This document shows, one piece after another, positions 33,271-47,002 of a stretch of DNA of 64,000 nucleotides (positions are counted from its first letter, which is position 1; each line of letters begins with the position of its first letter). Source of the DNA: an uncultured delta proteobacterium (GTDB taxonomy: Bacteria; Desulfobacterota; BSN033; UBA1163); NCBI GenBank assembly GCA_963827685.1, contig CAWHBU010000003.1, forward strand, positions 576,001-640,000, in the 5' to 3' direction. Below the pieces are notes generated by a model. The model ran no database searches. It had not been told where the DNA came from and saw only the letters and a program-made list of their open reading frames with translations. The translations under genes and the position numbers were made by a program.

Positions 33271-36200
33271 TTAAGCAGCGCTTTCGGCGGAACCCGCTTC
33301 TCCACCTTCCGTCCCTACCTCTTCTTCGGTATACCCCTCCACCCAGAGCTCCAATTGTTTGTACTTAGAAAGACCCGTCCCTGCAGGAATCAGGCGTCCC
33401 ATGATCACATTTTCCTTCAACCCTTTTAGATAGTCCATCTTTCCTGCTACGGCCGCCTGCGTGAGTACTTTGGTGGTCTCCTGGAAGGAGGCGGCAGAGA
33501 TAAAACTATCTGTAATGAGCGAAGCCTTCGTGATGCCCAGGAAAAGAGGTTCTCCCACAGCGGGCTTTCCTCCTTCCCTCATGACTCGGGCATTCTCTTC
33601 CTGAAAGACATATTTTTCCACTTGGTCGTCCACCAAAAAGTGTGTATCTCCAACCTCTTTGATCTTTACTCTTTTCAGCATCTGGCGAACGATGACCTCG
33701 ATATGTTTATCGTTAATCTTGACCCCCTGGAGTTTATAAACTTCTTGGATTTCATCGACCAAATACCGGGCCAGGGCCTTGTCCCCCAATACTCTCAAAA
33801 TATCATGGGGATTGGAAGGGCCATCCATTAAGGCCTCCCCTGCCTTCACAAAATCGCCTTCATGGACGCTGACGTGTTTTCCTCTGGGAATCATATATTC
33901 CTTGGATTCACCTACGTCGGGTCGAATGACTACCTTCCTTTTCCCTTTGAGGTCCTTTCCAAATTCAACCATGCCGTCAATATCGCTGATCAAGGCATAC
34001 TCTTTGGGCTTTCTGGCTTCAAAAAGTTCAGCCACTCGAGGAAGACCTCCTGTGATGTCCTTCGTCTTGGTCGTCTCTCGCGGGATCTTCACGATGACAT
34101 CCCCGGCTTCCACCATATCTCCCTCGGAGATAAAAATGTTCGCCCCGACCGGAAGGAGATACCGAGCTTGGGAGGTAGAAGCAGGAAGATTCATGGTCCT
34201 GCCTTTTTCATCTTTGATGGAAATCCTCGGCCGAAGCTCTGCATCTTTTGATTCGGTGATCACTTTTCTCGAAAGGCCGGTAAACTCATCCACCTGTTCC
34301 TGCATGGTCGCCCCCTCGATGACGTCCCCGAATTTCACCCTCCCTGAGACCTCCGTCAAAACGGGGATGGAGTAAGGATCCCACTCTGCCAGGATCTCTC
34401 CTTCCTTTACCTTTTGCCCATCCTTGACCCTCAGTTTGGCGCCATAGATCACGGAATACCGTCTTCGTTCTCTTCCGTTTTCATCCAAGATGGCAATCTC
34501 TCCATTGCGGTTCATGACGATCAGGTTCCCTTCGCGGTTTTTGACGGTCTTGAGATTGATAAATTTTACCCTCCCGTCAATCCGGCATTCCAGCGTAGTC
34601 TGTTCTGCTCGCCGGCTGGCTGTTCCACCGATGTGGAATGTCCTCATCGTCAACTGGGTTCCCGGCTCACCAATCGACTGGGCAGCGATAATGCCGATCG
34701 CCTCCCCCACACCGACCAGTCTCCCTCGGGCCAAATCCCTTCCGTAACAGAGGGCACAGACACCTTGTCTCGATTTGCAGGTAAGCACCGATCGAATCTT
34801 GACCTTATCAATGCCGATATCCTCAATACGATCGGCCAAGGTCTCGTCAATTTCTTCATTCCCTTTGGCGATCACCTCATTAGAAAAAGGATCTCGGATT
34901 TCTTCCAAGGCCACACGGCCCAGAATTCTTTCTTTCATCGATTCGATGATCTCCCCTCCCTCGACGAGCGATTCGACTTCGATCCCGTCCAGGGTCCCAC
35001 AGTCATTCTCCCTGATCACGACGTCCTGCGCGACATCCACTAATCGTCGGGTGAGATATCCCGCATTGGCTGTTTTCAATGCGGTATCAGCGAGCCCCTT
35101 TCGAGCCCCATGGGTAGAGATGAAGTACTGCAGAACCGTCAGCCCTTCCCGAAAGTTCGCGGTGATAGGAGTTTCGATGATCTCTCCGGAAGGTTTGGCC
35201 ATCAAACCCCGCATCCCGGCTAATTGCCGCACCTGTTGGGCGCTGCCTCGAGCTCCGGAGTCGGCCATGATGTAAATGGGGTTTAAACTCTCCGTCGTCT
35301 GTTTCTCTCCGGAAGGGGCCACCACCTCCTCGCTCCCCAGTTCCTTCAACATCACCCCCGCAATGTTTTCAGTGACCTGAGCCCAGATGTCGATGACTTT
35401 ATTGTATCGCTCTCCATCTGTAATCAATCCCTCCGTATATTGTTCTTGAACCCTCTCGATCTCCTGCTGGGCTTCTTGAAGGAGTTTTTCCTTGTTGGAA
35501 GGAATCAGCATGTCATCGAGGGAGATGGAAATCCCGGCCAAGGTCGCATAATAATAACCCAGACCCTTCAACCGATCGGAGAGAAGGACCGTTTTCTTAT
35601 CTCCCCCATACCGGTAGCAATAGTCGATGAGATTGGCGAGCTCGCTCTTCTTCATCACCTTGTTGATCAATCGAAACGGGATCTCCTCAGGGAGAATCTC
35701 CTTCAGGAGGACTCGGCCTACGGTTGTCTCGACGAGCTCCCCATCCAATCGGACTTTCATCCGGGCATGGAGGTCGACTTCATTCGCATCGTAAGCGATT
35801 CGGACCTCTTCTGGATTGGAGAACACTTTTCCTTCCCCTTTGACATAGGGGCGCTCCCTGGTCATGTAATAAATTCCAAGGACGATGTCTTGGGTGGGGA
35901 TAATGATGGGTTTCCCATTGGCAGGGGAAAGGATGTTATTGGTGGACATCATCAGAATCCTCGCCTCTGCTTGGGCCTCCACGGAGAGGGGAACATGGAC
36001 AGCCATCTGGTCCCCATCAAAATCTGCGTTAAAGGCAGCACAGACCAACGGATGAAGTTGGATGGCCTTGCCCTCAATCAAAACGGGTTCGAAGGCCTGA
36101 ATCCCTAAACGGTGAAGGGTGGGAGCCCGGTTGAGGAGCACAGGATGTTCCCGAATCACTTCATCCAGAACATCCCAGACCTCGGGCCTCTCTTTCTCCA

Positions 36201-37401
36201 ACATCTTCTTAGCGCTTTTGATCGTGGTCACCAAACCTTTCTCTTCCAAACGGTGGTAGATGAAAGGCTTGAACAGTTCGAGGGCCATCTTCTTGGGAAG
36301 TCCGCACTGATGCAGTTTCAGCTCGGGACCGACGACGATCACCGAACGGCCGGAATAGTCCACGCGCTTCCCCAAAAGGTTCTGACGGAAACGGCCCTGC
36401 TTCCCTCTGAGCATATCGCTCAATGATTTGAGAGGTTTCTTATTCGCCCCCAAGATCGTCCTCCCTCTCTTTCCGTTATCGAACAGGGCATCCACGGCTT
36501 CCTGAAGCATTCGCTTCTCGTTACGGATGATGATCTCCGGAGCGTTCAATTCGAGAAGCCGTTTGAGACGGTTGTTTCGATTGATGACCCTTCGGTAAAG
36601 GTCGTTGAGATCGGAGGTGGCAAACCGACCCCCATCCAAGGGGACAAGAGGGCGAAGATCAGGCGGGATGACGGGAACGACTTCCAAAATCATCCATTCC
36701 GGTTTGTTCCCTGATTCCAAGAAAGACTCAATAATTTTGAGTCGTTTGGCTAATCTCTTTTTTTTGGCCTCCGAGCTTGTCTCTTTCATTTCAGTCCGGA
36801 GCTTCTGCGAAAGTTCTTTCACATTGGTGTTTCTTAACAGCTCGCGAATCGCATCCGCCCCCTGGGACGCCGCAAATTCATCCCTGTATTTCTCCCTGGC
36901 CTCCCGATATCGATCTTCAGAAAGAATTTCACCCTTCTTCAGAGGCGTTTTCTTCCCATCGAGAACAAGGTAGGCTTCGAAGTAGAGAATCCGCTCTAAT
37001 TCTCTTAGTGTCATGTCCGAAAGGATCCCGATCTTACTGGGGATGCTTTTGAGGAACCAGATATGCGCCACAGGGGTGGCCAGCCGGATATGCCCCATCC
37101 TCTCTCTGCGCACCTTGGACTGGATGACTTCCACCCCGCACTTCTCACAGACAATGCCTCGATGTTTCATCCGTTTGTATTTACCGCAATTGCATTCATA
37201 ATCTTTGGTGGGACCAAAGATTTTGGCACAGAAGAGCCCATCTTTTTCCGGCTTGAAAGTCCGATAGTTAATGGTCTCCGGCTTCTTCACCTCTCCATGG
37301 GACCACGATTCAATCTTTTCTGGAGAGGCGATGGAGATCCGGATGGCATTATAACTAATCGGGCTTTTCGCCTTTTCAAAGAATGATAGATAATCTTCCA
37401 A
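33271..37401 (-). CDS. rpoC: RNA polymerase beta' subunit
   Basis: NADFDGD, zinc ribbon, SI3 insert; start placed at TTG 37401 behind AAGGAGG. Confidence 0.99.
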
Positions 37402-37422
37402 TGTCTTCCTCCTTTTTTGAGA

Positions 37423-37525
37423 CGATGAACGACGAACGATAAACGATGAACTGTTCATAGTTCATTGTCATTGCTCATGGTTCATTGTTCATCGTTCATA
37501 GTCCATAGTTCATCGTTCATGGTTC
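37423..37525. repeat. inverted heptamer tandem-repeat array
   Basis: (CGATGAA)-like x4 facing (GTTCATN)-like x10. Confidence 0.85.
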
Positions 37526-37527
37526 CG

Positions 37528-40500
37528 TTAGATCTCTTCCCTCTTCTCTTCAATCAGTTCTGTATCGAGACAAAGGCTCTGTAACTCTTTGACCAAAACA
37601 TTAAACGATTCTGGCAATCCGGGCTCCAACGTGTGTTCCCCTTTGACGATCGCCTCATAGACCCGAGTCCTTCCCGCGACATCGTCCGACTTTACGGTCA
37701 AGAATTCCTGCAAGGAGTGGGCTGCCCCATAGGCCTCCAGAGCCCACACCTCCATCTCCCCTAACCGTTGTCCTCCGAACTGAGCTTTGCCGCCCAACGG
37801 TTGCTGTGTCACCAAAGAATAAGGACCGATGGACCGGGCATGAATCTTATCGTCTACCAGGTGGTGCAATTTGAGGAGGTACATATAGCCTACGGTCACC
37901 TTCTGGTGAAAAGGTTCTCCGGTTCTTCCGTCATAAAGGATCGTTTGCCCAGTCGTCGGAAGCCCGGCTTTCTTCAATAGGTCTTTAATCTCTTCTTCTG
38001 AAACGCCATCGAACACAGGAACCGAAACAAAAATCCCCTCGCCCAGTTTACGAGCCAACTCGATAATCTCTTCGTCGGTCGCTTGCTCCAGATATTCATT
38101 CATCTCTTTTGAGGAATAGATTTCTTTAATCTTTCTTCGAAGCAATTTGGGGTCGAAATGTTTCTGCAAAAACTCCTCAATCTTCCATCCGAGACCCTTG
38201 GCAGCCCATCCCAGGTGGGTCTCAAGAATTTGGCCCACATTCATTCGTGAGGGGACGCCTAATGGGTTGAGGATGATTTCGACCGGGGTCCCGTCTTCTA
38301 AATGAGGCATATCCTCCTCAGGGAGAATTCGGGAGATGATCCCTTTGTTCCCATGACGTCCGGACATTTTATCCCCAACAGAGAGTTTCCGCTTTATGGC
38401 AATGTGGACCTTGACGGTCTTGATGACGCCCGGAGCCAGCTCGTCTCCCCTCTTCAGTTTAGCCAATTTATCTCCAAAAACTCCCTTGACCACATTGATC
38501 TGGAGCTCTGCATGATCGAGAAAACGGTGAACGTCAGGAAGAACTCTCTTCCCCTCCGTCACATCAATCTCCTTGAGTCGATCCAAGGGAATGGCATAGA
38601 GATGCTCTTCTTTGATCCGTTCTTTGGCATCCAAATAGACCCGGTTTTTCTTCTCATCCGCAATTTTATGGGCGGCTTTTTTACCGATCAGATATTTTCC
38701 GATCTTTCTCCGCGTACTATTCTGGATGATTCGGATCTCATCGGCTTGATTTTTTAACAACCTTACTTTCTCTTGGTCCTCAATCGCCTTCGTCCGCTCG
38801 TCCCTTTCCTGCCCTTTCCGGGAGAAGACCTTGGCATCGATCACGATCCCTTCAATCCCGTGAGGGACTTTCAATGAGGTATCTCGAACATCTCCCGCTT
38901 TTTCACCAAAGATGGCTCGAAGGAGTTTCTCTTCCGGAGAGAGTTGGGTTTCCCCCTTGGGGGTCACTTTTCCGACCAGAATGTCACCGGACTTCACCTC
39001 GGCTCCGATCCGGATAATCCCGCTCTCATCAAGATCCTTCAAGGCTTCTTCCCCTGCATTGGGAATATCACAGCTAATCTCCTCTTTTCCCAATTTCGTG
39101 TCCCGAGCCACACACTCCAATTCTTCGATATGAATCGAGGTATAGGTATCTTCTTTCAGCAACTTTTCGCTAATGAGAATGGAATCCTCAAAGTTATATC
39201 CTCCCCAAGGCATAAAGCCGACCAGGACATTCCTTCCCAATGCCAGCTCTCCCATATGGGTCGCTGGCCCATCCGCAATCACTTCACCCTTTTTGACCCG
39301 TTCCCCGATACGGACGATCGGTCTTTGATTAATGCAGGTATTCTGGTTGGATCGCTTGTACTTGATCAACGTATAAATGTCAACGCCAGGATCGTCCTCC
39401 TTCTGCCCATCTTCATCGGCACGGATGACGATACGCGAAGCATCCACGTCTTCTACAACACCGTCCCTTTTGGCAACCACCGTCACTCCAGAATCTCTCG
39501 CCACAATGGCTTCCATTCCCGTTCCAATCAACGGGGCATCCGTCCTGAGGAGAGGAACGGCTTGTCGTTGCATATTCGATCCCATCAGGGCTCGGTTGGC
39601 ATCATCGTTTTCCAAAAAGGGAACCAGGGAGGTGGCCACGCTTACCAACTGTTTTGGAGAAACATCCATGTACCGAATTTCCTCGGGTTTCACCATCATA
39701 AATTCGCCCCCTCTTCGGGCAGAGATGAGCGGGGCGATAAATCTCCCTTCTCTATCCAGAGTGGCATTGGCTTGGGCGATGGCGGGCTTCTGTCCGTCGA
39801 TTTCTTCCTCTTCATCCAGAGCAAAAAGATATCGGATATGATTCGTGACCTTCCCATTGATCACTTCCCGATAAGGGGTCTCAATAAATCCATAGTCATT
39901 GACGCGGGCATAGGTGCTGAGAGAGGTGATCAAGCCAATGTTCGGACCCTCTGGGGTCTCGATGGGACAGATTCGGCCATAATGAGTGGGGTGGACGTCC
40001 CTCACCTCAAACCCTGCCCTCTCTCGGGTGAGCCCTCCAGGGCCCAGGGCGGAGAGCCGACGCTTGTGAGTAATCTCGGAGAGAGGATTCGTCTGATCCA
40101 TAAACTGGGAAAGCTGACTCGAGCCAAAAAACTCTTTGATCACAGCCGAGAGGGGTTTTGAGTTGATGAGATCATGGGGCATTAAGGTTTCCACATCTTG
40201 GAGGCTCATTCGCTCCTTGATCGCCCTTTCAATCCTCACCAGCCCAATGTGATATTGATTTTCCAAGAGCTCCCCAACAGTCCTCACCCGTCGGTTTCCC
40301 AAGTGGTCAATATCGTCAACAGCACCCTGACCATCCTTCAGTTTGATTAAGTACTTGACGACCTCGAGAATATCCCTCCTTCTCAGGGTGGTCTTCTCAT
40401 CTTCCAGAATCTTTCGAACCTTGCCTTGAACATCATCCGTGATGCTTCCGTCCTTCAAGGTAGGCATGAGCCCGATGGGATAAAGGATCTTGGCAATGCG

Positions 40501-41988
40501 TTGAATCTCTTCGGCCATCTCCGGCGTAGCAATCGCTTCGTCAAAATCAAGCCATCCCTCCGAGATGCGATCGACCAGCTCTCTCCCTCCTGCATAGGCC
40601 GCTCCAGCCGCTAACGCCTCTTTCTTCCATCTTTCGGTCAACACCAACACTCTGGGAGGGTTTCCCTTCAGACCGATTTTATGGTTCAACTTCATCCTTC
40701 CCACTTTGGAGAGGTCGTAGCGTTCCGCGTTGAAGAAAAGATTGTAGAAGAGGCCGATGGCTGTCTCAATGGTAGGAGGATCTCCAGGACGGAGCCTTTT
40801 GTAAATGTCAATCAAGGCCCTTTCGGATTCCTTTTCACGAAGGGACTTGCCAGACTCGAGAACGGGCAATTTCTCTCTTTCTTCTTGGGTCAACCCAATC
40901 TTATCCACCACCAAGGTATCCCGCAATGAGGAGCTGACATTAATGTTATCGATGAACAGGATTTCGAAGACCTCGATCTTCCTCTCTTTCATCTCGTTCA
41001 GAAGCTTCTCCGTAACCTCATCGTTACATTCGGCAATGACTTCTCCTGTTTCGGGGTCGACCACATCCTTCGCCAGGTATCGACCGATCAGATCCTGAAC
41101 CTCCACCGAAATGGTATTGATCTTGGCCAATTCCAATTTTTTAAAAGCGTCTTCTGTAATGCGACGATGTTTCTTGAGGATGATCTTATGGGTTTCCGGA
41201 TCTAAGATATCGGAGGTCGCCTTCTGTCCCACCAACACGTCTTTCGAAATCTCTTTTTGGAATCTCCCTCTCCGGATGAGAACCTTTTCCCTATGATAGA
41301 AATAGTCCAGAAGTTCTTCTCCAGTGTATTTGAGAGCCCGAAGGAGGACGGTGACAGGAATCTTTCGACGTCGGTCGATCCGAACATGGAGAAGATCTTT
41401 CTGATCAAATTCGAAGTCAATCCAAGATCCCCGGTAGGGAATGATGCGTCCATAATAGAAAACCTTCCCACCGCTATGGGGTTTGATTTGATCCTGATCA
41501 AAAAAGACTCCCGGGGAGCGATGAAGTTGGCTGACGATCACCCGTTCGGTCCCGTTTACAATAAACGTTCCGTTTTCGGTCATGAGAGGGATTTCACCAA
41601 AATAGACTTCTTGCTCTTTGACGGCTTTGATGCTCTTGGCCTTGGTCTCTTCATTCACATCCCAAACCACTAAGCGAACCGTCACCTTAATGGGTGCCGC
41701 ATAGGTCATCCCCCTTAACAAGCATTCTTCTACATCATATTTCGGCTCGGTGAGACGGTAGTTCACGAAATCGAGAGAAGCGGTTTCATAAAAATCTTTG
41801 ATCGGGAAGACGGTTCTAAAGACCGCTTGCAGGCCGACGGGCTCCCGTTTGTCCGGATCCACATTGGCCTGTAGAAACTGTTCGTAGGATCTTTTCTGAA
41901 CCTCGATCAGATTGGAGATCTCTAACACTTCTTTAATTTTTGAAAAGTTCTTCCGATACCTTCGATAGATAGGGACAACGCTCGGCAT
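37528..41988 (-). CDS. rpoB: RNA polymerase beta subunit with unusual insertions
   Basis: [40 protein letters not shown]; about 1486 aa; ATG 41988 behind GAGGAG. Confidence 0.99.
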
Positions 41989-42344
41989 AATCACTCCTCT
42001 CCCTTAAGAGAGCTCTCAAAAACTACTGCACGCTCTCTTTGGAGATTTCTGAGCTTTTTCGGAAATCTCCCTTAAATAGAAAGTCTCCTCCCGCTCGGAC
42101 TGTCACCTAACATTCTCTTTGTCCTTCTGGGAAGAGACCACAATATTCCTTGCCCGGCGTAGCCGGAACCAAACAGGGTTTGCGATCACAAATTCCAAAT
42201 GACCGAAACAATCTTGCTTGGAATTCGATTTTTGTTCATTGGAGCTTATTTGTAATTTGGTGCTTCGCTTAACAAGAGAAATCTATTATTGCCAATTTGG
42301 TAACAATCTAATTTCTAAGCGCCAGAATACCTCTGAATGTTTCC

Positions 42345-42734
42345 TCACTTAACTTCGACCGTCCCCCCGCCTTCTTCAAGCTTTTTCTTCATCGTTGCGG
42401 CTTCGTCCTTCGAAACCCCTTCTTTAACTGGCTTGGGGACACCTTCAACAAGGTCTTTGGCTTCCTTCAAACCCAACCCGGTCAGTTCCCTGACCACTTT
42501 GATCACCTGGATCTTCTTATCACCAAAACCCGTCAGGATCACATCAAATTCTGTCTTCTCTTCAGACGGGGCGGCTTCCGCCCCGGCGACTGCCCCAGCA
42601 ACTGGCATGGCCGCCATTGTCATCGGCACAGAGGCCTTGATTCCCAATTTTTCTTCCAAGACCTTCACCAAGTCACGCGCTTCCAACAAGGTTAACCCAC
42701 CGATCTCTTCAGCAATTTTTTGGATGTCTGCCAT
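42345..42734 (-). CDS. rplL: 50S ribosomal protein L7/L12
   Basis: [32 protein letters not shown]. Confidence 0.98.
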
Positions 42735-42821: not shown

Positions 42822-43358
42822 TTATGTTTCAGATCCTGTTTGTTTCTCCAGTTGATCGACACGGGCCTGAAGGATTCCAAGCGTCCGCTGAATCGCATTG
42901 TACAGAACTGCTCCAAGTTGACTGGCTGTCCCCTGAATCCCTCCCAGGACTTGCCCAAAAAGCACTTCACGAGAAGGCATCGTTGCCAGGGCCTTAACCT
43001 CTTCAGGAGACGCCACCTTTCCTTGAATCAACCCGACCTTAATTTCAAGGTTGGGTTGTATTTTGACGAATTCCAATAAGATCTTTGCCAAAAGGACGGG
43101 ATCTCCATAAGAAATCGCCATCGCTGTGGGTCCTTCAAAATAGTTATCCAGTTTCTCCAAGTCCGTCCCTTTAGATGCCAGTTTCATCAGCGTATTTTTG
43201 ACCACGTGATAGGAAATCTTCTCTTCCCTTAACCGTTGCCTCAAACGACTCATCTGCTCAACATTGAGCCCCCGGTGATTGGTCAGGACAACAGCCCGAA
43301 ACCCCTTTACCCGTTCACCAAGATCTGATACGACCTGTGCTTTCTCTTTCCGATTCAA
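42822..43358 (-). CDS. rplJ: 50S ribosomal protein L10
   Basis: RGLNVEQM..LR, VVKNTL, GPTAMA. Confidence 0.96.
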   Translation of the reverse strand: MNRKEKAQVVSDLGERVKGFRAVVLTNHRGLNVEQMSRLRQRLREEKISYHVVKNTLMKLASKGTDLEKLDNYFEGPTAMAISYGDPVLLAKILLEFVKIQPNLEIKVGLIQGKVASPEEVKALATMPSREVLFGQVLGGIQGTASQLGAVLYNAIQRTLGILQARVDQLEKQTGSET

Positions 43359-43395: not shown

Positions 43396-44103
43396 TTAGG
43401 ACTTCAAAACATTTCTCACATCAAGTGGGTCAATTTTAATTCCAGGCCCCATGGTTGTGGATAAGGCAATGCTACGTAAATAGATCCCTTTGCTGGTCGG
43501 TGGTTTTGCCCGCATGATCACTTCCAGAAGCGTTTTGATGTTTTCTGACAATTGACCAAATCCAAAAGAGACCTTTCCTACAGGGACATGGATCACCCCG
43601 GCTTTCTCGACTTTAAACTCCACCTTGCCTGCTTTGATCTCTTTGACGGCCCTTTCCAGATCGAAGGTAACGGTTCCCACTTTGGGGTTGGGCATCAAAC
43701 CACGAGGCCCTAAAATCTTCCCCAATTTGCTGACCAAACCCATCACGTCCGGCGTAGCAACCGCTTTGTCAAACTCCAACCACCCTTTTGAAACTTTCTC
43801 AATGAGGTCTTCTCCTCCCACGAAATCGGCACCCGCATCCAATGCCTCTTTCTCTTTCTGACCTTTTGCAAAGACCAATACCCGGACCTTCTTGCCCGTT
43901 CCATGGGGGAGGACAACGGTTCCTCGAACCATTTGGTCTGCTTTCTTAGGATCGACCCCAAGGCGAATAGCGAGGTCCACTCCTTCATCAAATTTAGCGT
44001 ACGCCGTCTCCAAAAGAAGTTTAACGCCTTCCTCCAGTTCGTACCGTTTGTTTCGATCAACCTTGCCTCTTGCCTCTAAATATTTTTTCCCTCTCGTTGC
44101 CAT
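43396..44103 (-). CDS. rplA: 50S ribosomal protein L1
   Basis: [43 protein letters not shown]. Confidence 0.99.
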
Positions 44104-44112
44104 AATCTTCTC

Positions 44113-44535
44113 TTATTCAATCTCCAGACCCATGCTCCTTGCTGTCCCCTCGATCGTGCGGATCGCACCCTCCATGTTCACGGCGTTAAGATCTTTGAAC
44201 TTAATTTGGGCAATCTCCCGAATCTGGTCTCTGGTGACTTTGCCCACTTTGTTGCGATTGGGTTCCCCAGAACCTTTCACAATTTTTGCCGCCTTCTTCA
44301 AAAGAATGGAAGCAGGCGGAGTTTTGGTCACAAAGTTGAAGGACCGATCTGAATAGATAGTGATCACCACGGGGATGATCATTCCTTCTTGTCCCTGGGT
44401 CCGACCGTTAAAGGCTTTGCAAAACTCCATGATGTTGACCCCGTGTTGTCCCAGGGCCGGCCCGACCGGGGGAGAAGGGTTGGCTTGCCCTGCCTGAATT
44501 TGAAGCTTTACCATTGCCGCCACTTTCTTTGCCAT
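44113..44535 (-). CDS. rplK: 50S ribosomal protein L11
   Basis: [23 protein letters not shown]. Confidence 0.99.
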
Positions 44536-44559: not shown

Positions 44560-45090
44560 TCAATTCTTTTCCACTTGGATAAAATCCAGTTCGACTGGAG
44601 TCGCTCTTCCAAAGATAGAGACTAAAACCTTCAATTTCCTTTTTTCAGGTTTGACCTCTTCAATGGTCCCAATAAAGTTGACGAAAGGACCGTCGATGAC
44701 TCGAACGCTATCTCCGACGCCTAAAGAAACTTTAGGTTTTACCCTCGAAACACCTTCTTTCATTTGAGACAAGATCTCATCAACCTCTCCCTCTGAGATG
44801 GGGATCGGTTTGGTACCATCGCCGGCAAAACCCGTGATTTTTGGGGTGTCCTTGACGATATGCCATGTCTCCTCGTTCAATTCCATTTTCACCAATATAT
44901 ATCCAGGGAATATCTTTCTCTGGGAGGTCTTTCTCTTTCCCTTCACCAACTCCACCACGGTCTCCATGGGGACTAATATGTTGGAGAAAAATTCTCCCTT
45001 GCCCAAGTTTTTAATTCGTTCTTCTAAATTCTGTTTGGCCCTGTTTTCGAAACCTGAATAGGTGTGGACCACATACCACTGTTGCGTCAT
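44560..45090 (-). CDS. nusG: transcription termination/antitermination factor NusG
   Basis: [35 protein letters not shown]. Confidence 0.98.
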
Positions 45091-45134
45091 AATGTTTACC
45101 ATTTGAATGGAGGAGGAAGTCCATTCCATCCCTT

Positions 45135-45802: not shown

Positions 45803-47002
45803 TTATTCGAGGACATCACTGATGACGCCTGCCCCCACGGTACGACCCCCCTCCCGAATCGCAAACCGCAACTCCTTCTCCATCGCGATCGGCGTAATCA
45901 ACTCCACCGTCAACGCCACATTGTCCCCTGGCATCACCATCTCCACCCCCTCCGGCAATGCCGCCACCCCCGTCACATCCGTCGTCCGAAAATAAAACTG
46001 CGGCCGATATCCATTAAAAAACGGCGTATGCCGACCCCCCTCCTCCTTCGTCAAGATATACGCCTCCGCCTTAAACTTCCGATGCGGTGTGATCGACCCA
46101 GGCTTGGCCACCACCTGACCTCGCTCCACCTCCTCACGCTTCACCCCTCGAAGCAACGCCCCGATGTTATCCCCCGCCTGACCCTGATCCAACGTCTTAC
46201 GAAACATCTCCACCCCCGTACACACCGTCTTCATCGTCGGCCGTATCCCTACCACCTCCACCTCATCACCCACCTTGATCACCCCTCGCTCTACCCTCCC
46301 CGTCACCACCGTCCCCCGACCCGAGATGCTAAACACATCCTCTATCGGCATCAAAAACGGCTTGTCAATATCCCGAACCGGCTCCGGGATATACGTGTCC
46401 ACTGCATCCATCAGCTTCCAAATCCCACTACACCACTGACAATCCGGCTTCCCACAACCACACTCCAGAGCCTTCAAGGCACTGCCCCGTATCACCGGCG
46501 TCGACTCCCCAGGAAAATCATACCCCGATAGTAACTCCCTGACCTCCAACTCCACCAAATCCAATAACTCCGGATCTTCCACCATGTCCACCTTGTTCAA
46601 AAACACCACGATGTAAGGCACTCGCACCTGCTTGGCCAACAACACATGCTCCCGCGTCTGCGGCATCGGCCCATCCGCCGCCGACACCACCAAGATCGTC
46701 CCATCCATCTGCGCCGCCCCCGTGATCATATTCTTGATATAATCCGCATGCCCCGGACAATCAATGTGCGCATAATGACGCTTCGCCGTCTCATACTCCA
46801 CATGCGCAATCGCTATCGTCAACCCACGCTCCTTCTCCTCCGGCGCCTTATCAATCTGATCAAACGCCATATAGGAGGCCAAATGCTTCGTCGCCAATAC
46901 CTTCGTGATCGCTGAGGTCAACGTCGTCTTCCCATGATCCACATGACCGATCGTCCCCACATTGACATGCGGCTTCGTCCTCTCAAATTTCGGCTTCGAC
47001 AT
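45803..47002 (-). CDS. tuf: elongation factor Tu
   Basis: [28 protein letters not shown]. Confidence 0.99.

Follow-up and report, generated by a model that had tools for sequence, protein, structure and literature searches.

The stretch analysed here, called the window below, comprises 64,000 nucleotides of contig CAWHBU010000003.1 (positions 576,001 to 640,000) from an uncultured delta proteobacterium. Its rpoB gene encodes an RNA polymerase (RNAP) beta subunit in which a homologue of domain II of ribosomal protein L1 is embedded. The gene lies on the minus strand at 37528..41994 and is represented by an open reading frame (ORF) of 1488 codons beginning with GTG. The product matches the rpoB model TIGR02013 as a full-length equivalog with 1834.8 bits (cut-off 801.15), and Pfam Rpb2 domains 1, 2, 3, 45, 6 and 7 are all present. 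The true start is probably the ATG at 41988, two codons after the GTG; the database forms of the protein have 1486 aa, and our residue numbers, which are counted from the GTG, are thus shifted by +2 relative to the database records.

The insert consists of 85 residues (RpoB aa 445-529, 40408..40662, minus strand) and was delimited by aligning the window RpoB with the RpoB of six genomes that represent four other families of the phylum. It is bordered by an upstream flank (aa 412-444, 40663..40761, minus strand) and a downstream flank that ends in DDIDHLGN (aa 530-565, 40300..40407, minus strand), both of which are conserved in insert-free RpoBs. The flanks are colinear: where the relatives read ...KLGLKG followed directly by VPEDQTVLRRED..., the window reads ...KIGLKG, then the 85 residues, and then the downstream flank, with zero flank residues deleted. 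The insertion point is therefore located between ...GLKG and LEDEKT.... An initial annotation of the window, made from the letters alone, had placed the insert at 40408-40653; the translation given for this span is exact, but its upstream end is 9 bases too short. The same annotation described the insert as in frame and without stops, as is the case within the 1488-codon ORF, and the segment of the window's L1 that it set against the insert (43636-43884) translates exactly as quoted.

The window encodes an ordinary L1 as well, which serves as the natural reference for the insert. Its gene, rplA (43396..44103, minus strand, 235 aa), is intact, as had been claimed: the product covers the complete PF00687 (Ribosomal_L1) profile, positions 1-198 of 198, with 236.7 bits. 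The counterpart of the insert in this protein is domain II, aa 71-156 (43636..43893, minus strand), as located by BLASTP and by the alignment. In a single BLASTP comparison, insert and L1 share 39 identical and 61 positive positions out of 83 with one gap (E 2e-26), which is the same figure as the earlier hand count of about 39 in 83. In Thermus L1, domain II spans residues 70-160 (PMC3602588; this paper, PMC8318588 and PMC11515920 are cited here on the basis of parts of their text), so that the match at 71-156 bears out the view that the insert boundaries coincide with those of the domain.

Profile searches lead to the same identification. The hmmscan of RpoB that the initial annotation had proposed finds PF00687 nested in the beta subunit at aa 427-532 with 58.1 bits, above the gathering cut-off of 32.2, and at profile positions 28-139 of 198; the isolated 82-aa piece still scores 54.2 bits. 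The bacterial L1 model TIGR01169 (rplA_bact) matches aa 444-529 with 75.9 bits at model positions 68-154 of 227, and its whole-protein cut-off of 216.3 is not reached, as expected for a single domain. Only the middle parts of both profiles are covered, and L1 domain I is unmatched in the insert. Because the two-domain architecture of L1 is lacking (profile positions 28-139 of 198), the insert is to be classed, on its sequence, as a single-domain homologue of L1 domain II and not as a ribosomal protein L1. A search of Protein Data Bank (PDB) sequences with a 105-aa piece returned 50 distinct sequences at E <= 10, the best being an L1 chain (3.2e-17); up to E 0.1 the matches are L1 chains without exception, the next being four unrelated chains at E 0.42-1.3, and among the PDB sequences the insert has no RNAP beta match at E <= 10. 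A search of the whole assembly with the 82-aa piece found two places only, the RpoB insert and rplA.

The L1 domain II alpha/beta fold is also predicted to be kept. An AlphaFold2 (AF2) model of aa 436-540 has a mean predicted local distance difference test (pLDDT) score of 77.6, although the alignment supplied to AF2 consisted of 21 inserts and 29 L1s, and the L1 sequences favour an L1 fold as the outcome. When this model was compared with the PDB by Foldseek, all 36 matches at E <= 0.001 were L1 structures or ribosome entries; the L1 matches have TMq values of 0.73-0.78 and root-mean-square deviations of mostly 1.1-1.8 A over 84-89 columns. A look-up of aa 441-532 in the ESM Atlas gave no usable match. 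Overall, the identity of the insert as an L1 domain II homologue is near certain.

The insert characterizes the family to which the window belongs. In searches of genomes of the class (E <= 1e-25), it was found in 51 of the 54 other genomes of this family, distributed over 21 genera, with 68-96% identity. The remaining three genomes are 69, 79 and 87% complete, and they lack the insert because that part of rpoB is not assembled there: the conserved flanks are missing too. When a 154-aa query consisting of flank, insert and flank was used, all 24 family genomes compared (24/24) gave one contiguous match, one of which is cut by a contig end. The insert is found in none of the eight and five genomes of the two sister families (f2 and f3), and in eleven genomes of f2, f3 and two further families (f4 and f5) the same query shows both flanks adjacent to each other, in frames of 1388-1408 aa. 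Across the 146 genomes sampled from another 76 families of the phylum, no insert embedded in RpoB was found; only L1-sized frames (160-499 aa) were matched, and four of these genomes had no match.

Larger collections give a similar picture. Among the GTDB species genomes, 35 of the 37 loci returned are RpoB with the insert (two of them are truncated at contig ends, and L049 has multiple frameshifts). They come from metagenome-assembled genomes (MAGs) titled Thermodesulfobacteriota, Syntrophaceae, Syntrophorhabdus sp. or delta proteobacterium, and no cultured strain appears among the titles of these insert-bearing loci. Two other loci were set aside: L050, considered as a second insert-bearing lineage, proved to be an ordinary L1 gene of a Binatia MAG, and L051 is a Holosporales RpoB without the insert. 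A collection of 5.8 billion proteins contains 126 proteins that match the insert (818-2604 aa), and all 120 listed of these carry PF00687 together with Rpb2 domains, with 71-100% identity in the insert; the 126 represent RpoB clusters in metagenomes. An exhaustive phmmer search of 1.84 billion cluster representatives gave 2568 matches, and the 150 listed include no further RpoB lineage that has an L1 insert; this is a weak negative, since clusters at 50% identity can hide insert-bearing members behind insert-free representatives.

Two loci show disrupted frames. In the L049 MAG, rpoB is broken into many short frames, and in another MAG, at G048:C33:73691-73897, a TGA lies inside the insert, leaving a 73-aa frame. 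Errors of assembly or sequencing are the most likely cause of these breaks; pseudogenes are less likely, the gene being essential.

Since the window is part of a metagenome assembly with 7.98% estimated contamination, and a donor-like gene lies only 2.7 kb away, an assembly or binning artefact that fused an rplA-like sequence into rpoB has to be considered. To examine the junctions, Logan contigs were compared from four runs of four studies: X2 and X4 (sediment) and the RNA libraries X15 and X16. A 361-nt contig of the DNA run X2 (40339-40699) spans both junctions, as does a 988-nt contig of the metatranscriptome X16 (40202-40860), which differs from the window at 60 positions without gaps; the upstream junction is also covered by a 151-nt contig of X15. 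Among the contigs of the four runs, none is reported to join the flanks without the insert. RNA libraries may contain DNA, and the contigs from X15 and X16 are taken to show the presence of the arrangement, not its transcription. As to the reads across the junctions that had been called for, contigs of independent DNA and RNA libraries bridge both. The insert is only 47% identical to the window's own L1, and the same in-frame arrangement recurs in 51 other genomes, in 35 named MAG loci and in 126 protein clusters of various origins. An artefact is thus refuted, its remaining probability being practically nil, and the earlier judgement that the insert is no assembly duplication is upheld. Parts of the window are also matched by contigs of runs X1-X14, sediment, wetland, freshwater-sediment and soil metagenomes of about ten studies, and X2 and X4 contain 12 and 22 contigs, respectively, that are at least 99% alike to the window.

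We estimated selection from the ratio of nonsynonymous to synonymous substitution rates (dN/dS), calculated pairwise by the Nei-Gojobori method (NG86) for 28 full-length genes, namely that of the window and those of 27 loci of at least 1400 codons. Of the 378 pairs, 102 were usable, in that dS of the rest of the gene was below 1.5. The median dN/dS is 0.080 for the insert region, aa 441-532 (range 0.026-0.137), and 0.033 for the rest of RpoB (0.020-0.055). For the L1 of the same family, domain II gives 0.043 and domain I 0.067 (25 genes, 124 of 300 pairs usable). Judged from these substitution patterns, the insert is under strong purifying selection, with a constraint about equal to that of a real ribosomal protein domain. 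The initial annotation had inferred an old domain capture kept under selection and had proposed a dN/dS estimate as a check; the value of 0.080, together with the occurrence of the inserts in 21 genera of one family and as a single clade, bears that inference out. The annotation had also listed a decoy against phage RNAP inhibitors among the candidate functions; such a decoy or shield would act against phage-encoded or other inhibitors of the beta lobe. Lobe insertions are surface-exposed, which makes the idea conceivable and little more; the insert is conserved and does not diversify as arms-race surfaces do (0.026-0.137 in every usable pair), so that we regard a decoy as very improbable.

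The sequence of the domain has nevertheless been remodelled relative to L1. In a column-by-column comparison of 28 inserts and 183 L1 domain II sequences, we used the numbering of the window's own L1 for the sites that are kept or changed. The inserts keep V77, A87, G91, A92, G96, L100, the motifs G-W-L-x-F-D and A-T-P, L131, P133 and G135, and also M137, P138, K141, G143, T144, T146 and D148. On the other hand, the GPRG...NPK loop, which is invariant in L1, is altered in the inserts: G132 (100% in L1s) is replaced by H, Y or Q, R134 (75%) by Ile in 27 of the 28 inserts, N139 (96%) by S or T, and P140 (95%) by L, M or V. Outside the loop, M121 (99%) becomes mostly A, D93 (92%) T or A, and K157 (92%) L. 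The GPRG and NPK changes noted in the initial annotation are thus genuine and family-wide. Seven positions that are variable in L1s (P447, E454, K458, G470, E486, E496 and R499 in RpoB) are at least 90% fixed in the inserts, and this goes further than the fold by itself requires. The median isoelectric point (pI) is 5.19 for inserts versus 8.31 for L1, and the net charge is -3 versus +1.

The functional meaning of these changes can be judged from Thermus L1, in which Arg135 enters the groove of H77, Arg130 bridges A2169 and tRNA G19, and domain I makes most of the rRNA contacts (PMC3602588). Mapped by alignment offsets and the motif rather than from a printed alignment, Arg135 would correspond to R134 of the window's own L1, which is Ile in the inserts, and Arg130 to K129, which is still Lys. 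The insert could in principle have retained an L1-like activity, recognizing an RNA elbow or a ligand of the L1 stalk (tRNA, an rRNA-like fold, EF-P or ABCF-type E-site factors) and linking the polymerase to translation. In its favour, the insert preserves the fold and a large part of the L1 loop (G135, M137, P138, K141, G143, T144 and T146), a lysine stands where Thermus Arg130 touches G19 and A2169 (PMC3602588), and the gene lies within the nusG-rplKAJL-rpoBC cluster. However, RNA binding by L1 is mainly a matter of domain I (PMC3602588), which is absent from the insert; Ile takes the place of the H77-groove arginine in 27 of 28 inserts; and with a median pI of 5.19 and a net charge of -3 the domain is acidic. 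We consider a retained activity improbable. The more specific proposal that the captured L1-stalk domain senses the tRNA elbow, an EF-P/ABCF E-site factor or the ribosome, and thereby couples transcription to the state of translation, is more improbable still. Direct contact with DNA or RNA, another of the candidates first suggested, likewise becomes less likely, given the acidic shift (pI 5.19 versus 8.31) and the loss of the groove arginine. The transcription-ribosome link from that list of candidates is, like the phage decoy, a guess.

In relation to its homologue, then, the insert shares with uL1 domain II (PF00687) the sequence, the predicted fold, the coincident boundaries and the core motifs. 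It differs in that it lacks domain I, the main binder of rRNA and mRNA, and is embedded in RpoB, and in that the uL1 domain is basic with the GPRG...NPK loop, whereas the insert is acidic, with the loop altered and the groove arginine lost.

The location of the insert within the polymerase can be deduced from the flanks. In proteobacterial beta subunits in the PDB, the two flanks are only 3-8 residues apart; for E. coli beta, the alignment stops near 408-418 with the upstream flank and resumes at 419 with the downstream one. By this alignment the insertion loop corresponds to approximately residues 410-418 of E. coli beta, a surface loop of the beta2 lobe, and the earlier assignment of the site to the beta lobe was correct. 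With the beta subunits of B. subtilis (6wvj_C) and S. aureus (8x6f_C), the alignment forms a single stretch without difference in length (query 13-229 with chain 227-443), so that these two carry a comparably long insert in that loop. The Firmicute insert is SI1, or beta-i5 (a name used by PMC8318588, which cites Lane and Darst 2010), and it binds PcrA's C-terminal domain (PMC8318588). Our insert occupies the position that defines the beta-i5 site, between the YDLS.VGR.K.N segment and the following helix in the beta2 lobe.

Firmicute SI1/beta-i5 (B. subtilis RpoB approximately 280-375) thus shares with our insert the beta2-lobe loop and a nearly equal length, and it provides an example of a lobe surface module with a protein-docking role (PMC8318588). 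There is, however, no sequence similarity between the two (no RNAP beta at E <= 10), and the Firmicute insert is classed as a BEAN domain in the text of PMC11515920, while ours has the L1 fold. Homology to a BEAN-type insert was not found, since the fold search gave L1 only at E <= 0.001. Accordingly, our insert shares its site with Firmicute beta-i5 but is not homologous to it.

The window RpoB carries a second lobe insertion. Both E. coli beta 132-408 and 3LTI, a crystal fragment of beta2-beta-i4, can be aligned with residues 140-439 as a single stretch, which indicates that a Proteobacteria-type SI1 (beta-i4) is also present and that the lobe therefore has two insertions. E. coli-type SI1 is, like our insert, a lineage-specific insertion in the beta2 lobe, but it has another site in the lobe and another fold, and its occurrence extends widely through Gracilicutes instead of being limited to one family (PMC11515920). 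Within this region lies the motif VVDPETGEV (RpoB aa 311-319, 41038..41064, minus strand), which resembles the PcrA/UvrD helicase-interaction motif with its TGE triad described in PMC8318588; a second, weaker DPETH occurs at aa 265. The helicase-type DPETGE motif of the window RpoB therefore sits in the E. coli-type SI1 and not in the L1-like insert. In a complex prediction with RpoB 20-444 plus 530-720 and the insert (445-529) as its partner, the best score was 0.30 (mark 0.32).

A loop that accepts unrelated insertions in other phyla (PMC11515920) also allows the insert to be an entrenched passenger, which entered a tolerant loop and is conserved for clean folding or because the lobe has adapted to it, with no function of its own. 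Sister families manage without the insert, and no partner or phenotype is known. Against this explanation, the dN/dS of 0.080 is near those of genuine L1 domains (0.043 and 0.067), there are zero losses in the 52 family genomes with that part of rpoB, which represent 21 genera, charged and probably surface-exposed positions that vary in L1s are fixed in the inserts (E454, K458, E486, E496 and R499), and the shift to an acidic domain is directional. A mere passenger is in our opinion unlikely, though it deserves to be kept in mind.

The gene neighbourhood bears on the origin of the insert. All on the minus strand, the genes are arranged in the order tuf (45803-47002), nusG (44560-45129), rplK (44113-44535), rplA, rplJ, which encodes uL10 (42822-43358), rplL (42345-42734), rpoB and rpoC. 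The first three form the usual upstream part of the cluster, rplJ and rplL lie between rplA and rpoB, and rpoC, the gene for beta prime (33271..37458), is directly downstream of rpoB. The possible donor, rplA, is thus located three genes and about 2.7 kb upstream. RpoC itself has weak Biotin_lipoyl_2, RPOC_hybrid and Apocytochr_F_C matches around aa 1008-1214. Such a pattern is typical of SI3-type sandwich-barrel-hybrid insertions, which makes this region a putative one.

The tree of inserts and L1s suggested in the initial annotation was calculated by maximum likelihood. The inserts form one clade, with support values of 99 and 100 in the Shimodaira-Hasegawa-like approximate likelihood ratio test (SH-aLRT) of two trees, of which the second is a quick tree and not a careful search, and the stem of the clade is long, at approximately 0.9-1.0 substitutions per site. 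In an approximately unbiased (AU) test, a single clade of the inserts and the L1s of their own and the sister family is not rejected (p 0.712), and the tree so constrained is 17.7 log-likelihood units better than the quick free tree. Among free L1s in a large protein collection, the closest score no more than 79 bits (44-61% identity) and are spread across phyla, in a search that is word-seeded and hence biased. The donor was probably the lineage's own rplA. A copy made within the cluster is the simplest reading, given the absence of the insert from the sister families and the position of rplA on the same strand, 2.7 kb upstream. The domain was inserted once, and cleanly, into rpoB in the ancestor of one uncultured Thermodesulfobacteriota family. 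Codons 71-156 of rplA would have been its source; rapid change after the capture, corresponding to the stem, would then have been followed by stasis.

Other proteins contain L1-like domains in foreign surroundings. One of them, P0374 (1017 aa), combines a weak TIR_2 match, a Ribosomal_L1 match at aa 552-646 (profile 45-146) and Sel1 repeats, and in another, P0279 (463 aa), an FGE-sulfatase domain is fused to Ribosomal_L1 (aa 119-227). The clusters to which they belong comprise 7 and 5 proteins, respectively, nearly all of equal length and on separate contigs, and they are therefore not one-off chimeras. It would seem, from these two non-ribosomal proteins, that L1 domain II was co-opted on more than one occasion.

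Taking the observations together, we favour, with a probability of roughly 55%, the reading that the insert is an exapted protein-docking or structural module that forms an acidic surface on the beta2 lobe and no longer binds rRNA or tRNA. According to this reading, RNA binding would have been given up with the loss of the rRNA-groove arginine and the switch from basic to acidic, and the acidic surface, beside the Proteobacteria-type SI1, would dock a protein partner or tune the lobe in initiation or elongation, in the manner of other lobe insertions. The analogy is with the Firmicute SI1 in the same loop and the E. coli SI1 nearby, both of which serve as protein-contact surfaces (PMC8318588). 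The two ends of L1 domain II meet at the hinge, by the GPRG...NPK loop, and in RpoB that side would have to face the lobe. The more hydrophobic changes in the loop (G to H or Y, R to I, P to L) would suit a new packing interface.

Several points weigh against the docking-module reading. The organisms are uncultured, and no partner is known. The low dN/dS could in part reflect just the need to avoid misfolding an essential protein. Some residual RNA contact is possible, to judge from the survival of the lysine at the Arg130 position and of K141, G143, T144 and T146, and the way in which the Thermus residues were mapped adds to the doubt. As for the origin, the attachment of the stem among the L1s is poorly supported (35-73%) and accompanied by long-branch warnings, and a foreign donor is possible.

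The insert is a lineage-specific RNAP insertion of a new fold and of ribosomal-protein origin. Automatic Pfam annotation of the insert-bearing proteins already shows PF00687. The insert is not known to be listed in the two papers of Lane and Darst 2010 or in Iyer et al. 2004, and these MAGs postdate all of them. Full-text literature searches, which do not reach these papers, gave no published description of an L1-derived beta insertion. According to a survey of 2024 (PMC11515920), most lineage-specific beta insertions are BEAN domains by structure and sequence, inserted at five sites. The parts of its main text that we cite make no mention of L1 among beta and beta-prime insertions (apparent 'L1' matches are L10, and the supplements are outside this statement). 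The initial annotation, which knew of no beta insertion derived from a ribosomal protein, is in agreement with this survey, Lane and Darst 2010 being outside the comparison.

The BEAN domain (Alvarez-Carreno et al. 2024, PMC11515920) is also the closest precedent, in that one type of domain is inserted in both RNAP and archaeal uL10, and rplJ (uL10) is a cluster neighbour of rplA and rpoB. It differs from our insert in being another fold that is old and polyphyletic, with no evident pair of donor and recipient, whereas the insert is a recognizable ribosomal-protein domain confined to the RpoB of a single family.

The finding represents a datable and unusually clean case of domain capture and neofunctionalization within two of the most conserved machines of the cell, and it suggests that the gene neighbourhood may supply the raw material for such insertions. 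As a second, unrelated occupant of the beta-i5 loop, the insert identifies this loop as a place where add-on modules generally dock. Should the domain have kept an L1-like ligand, it would constitute a new physical link between transcription and translation. For the uncultured family itself, the insert provides a simple molecular marker: the RpoB of one family of sediment bacteria permanently carries a domain related to ribosomal protein L1.

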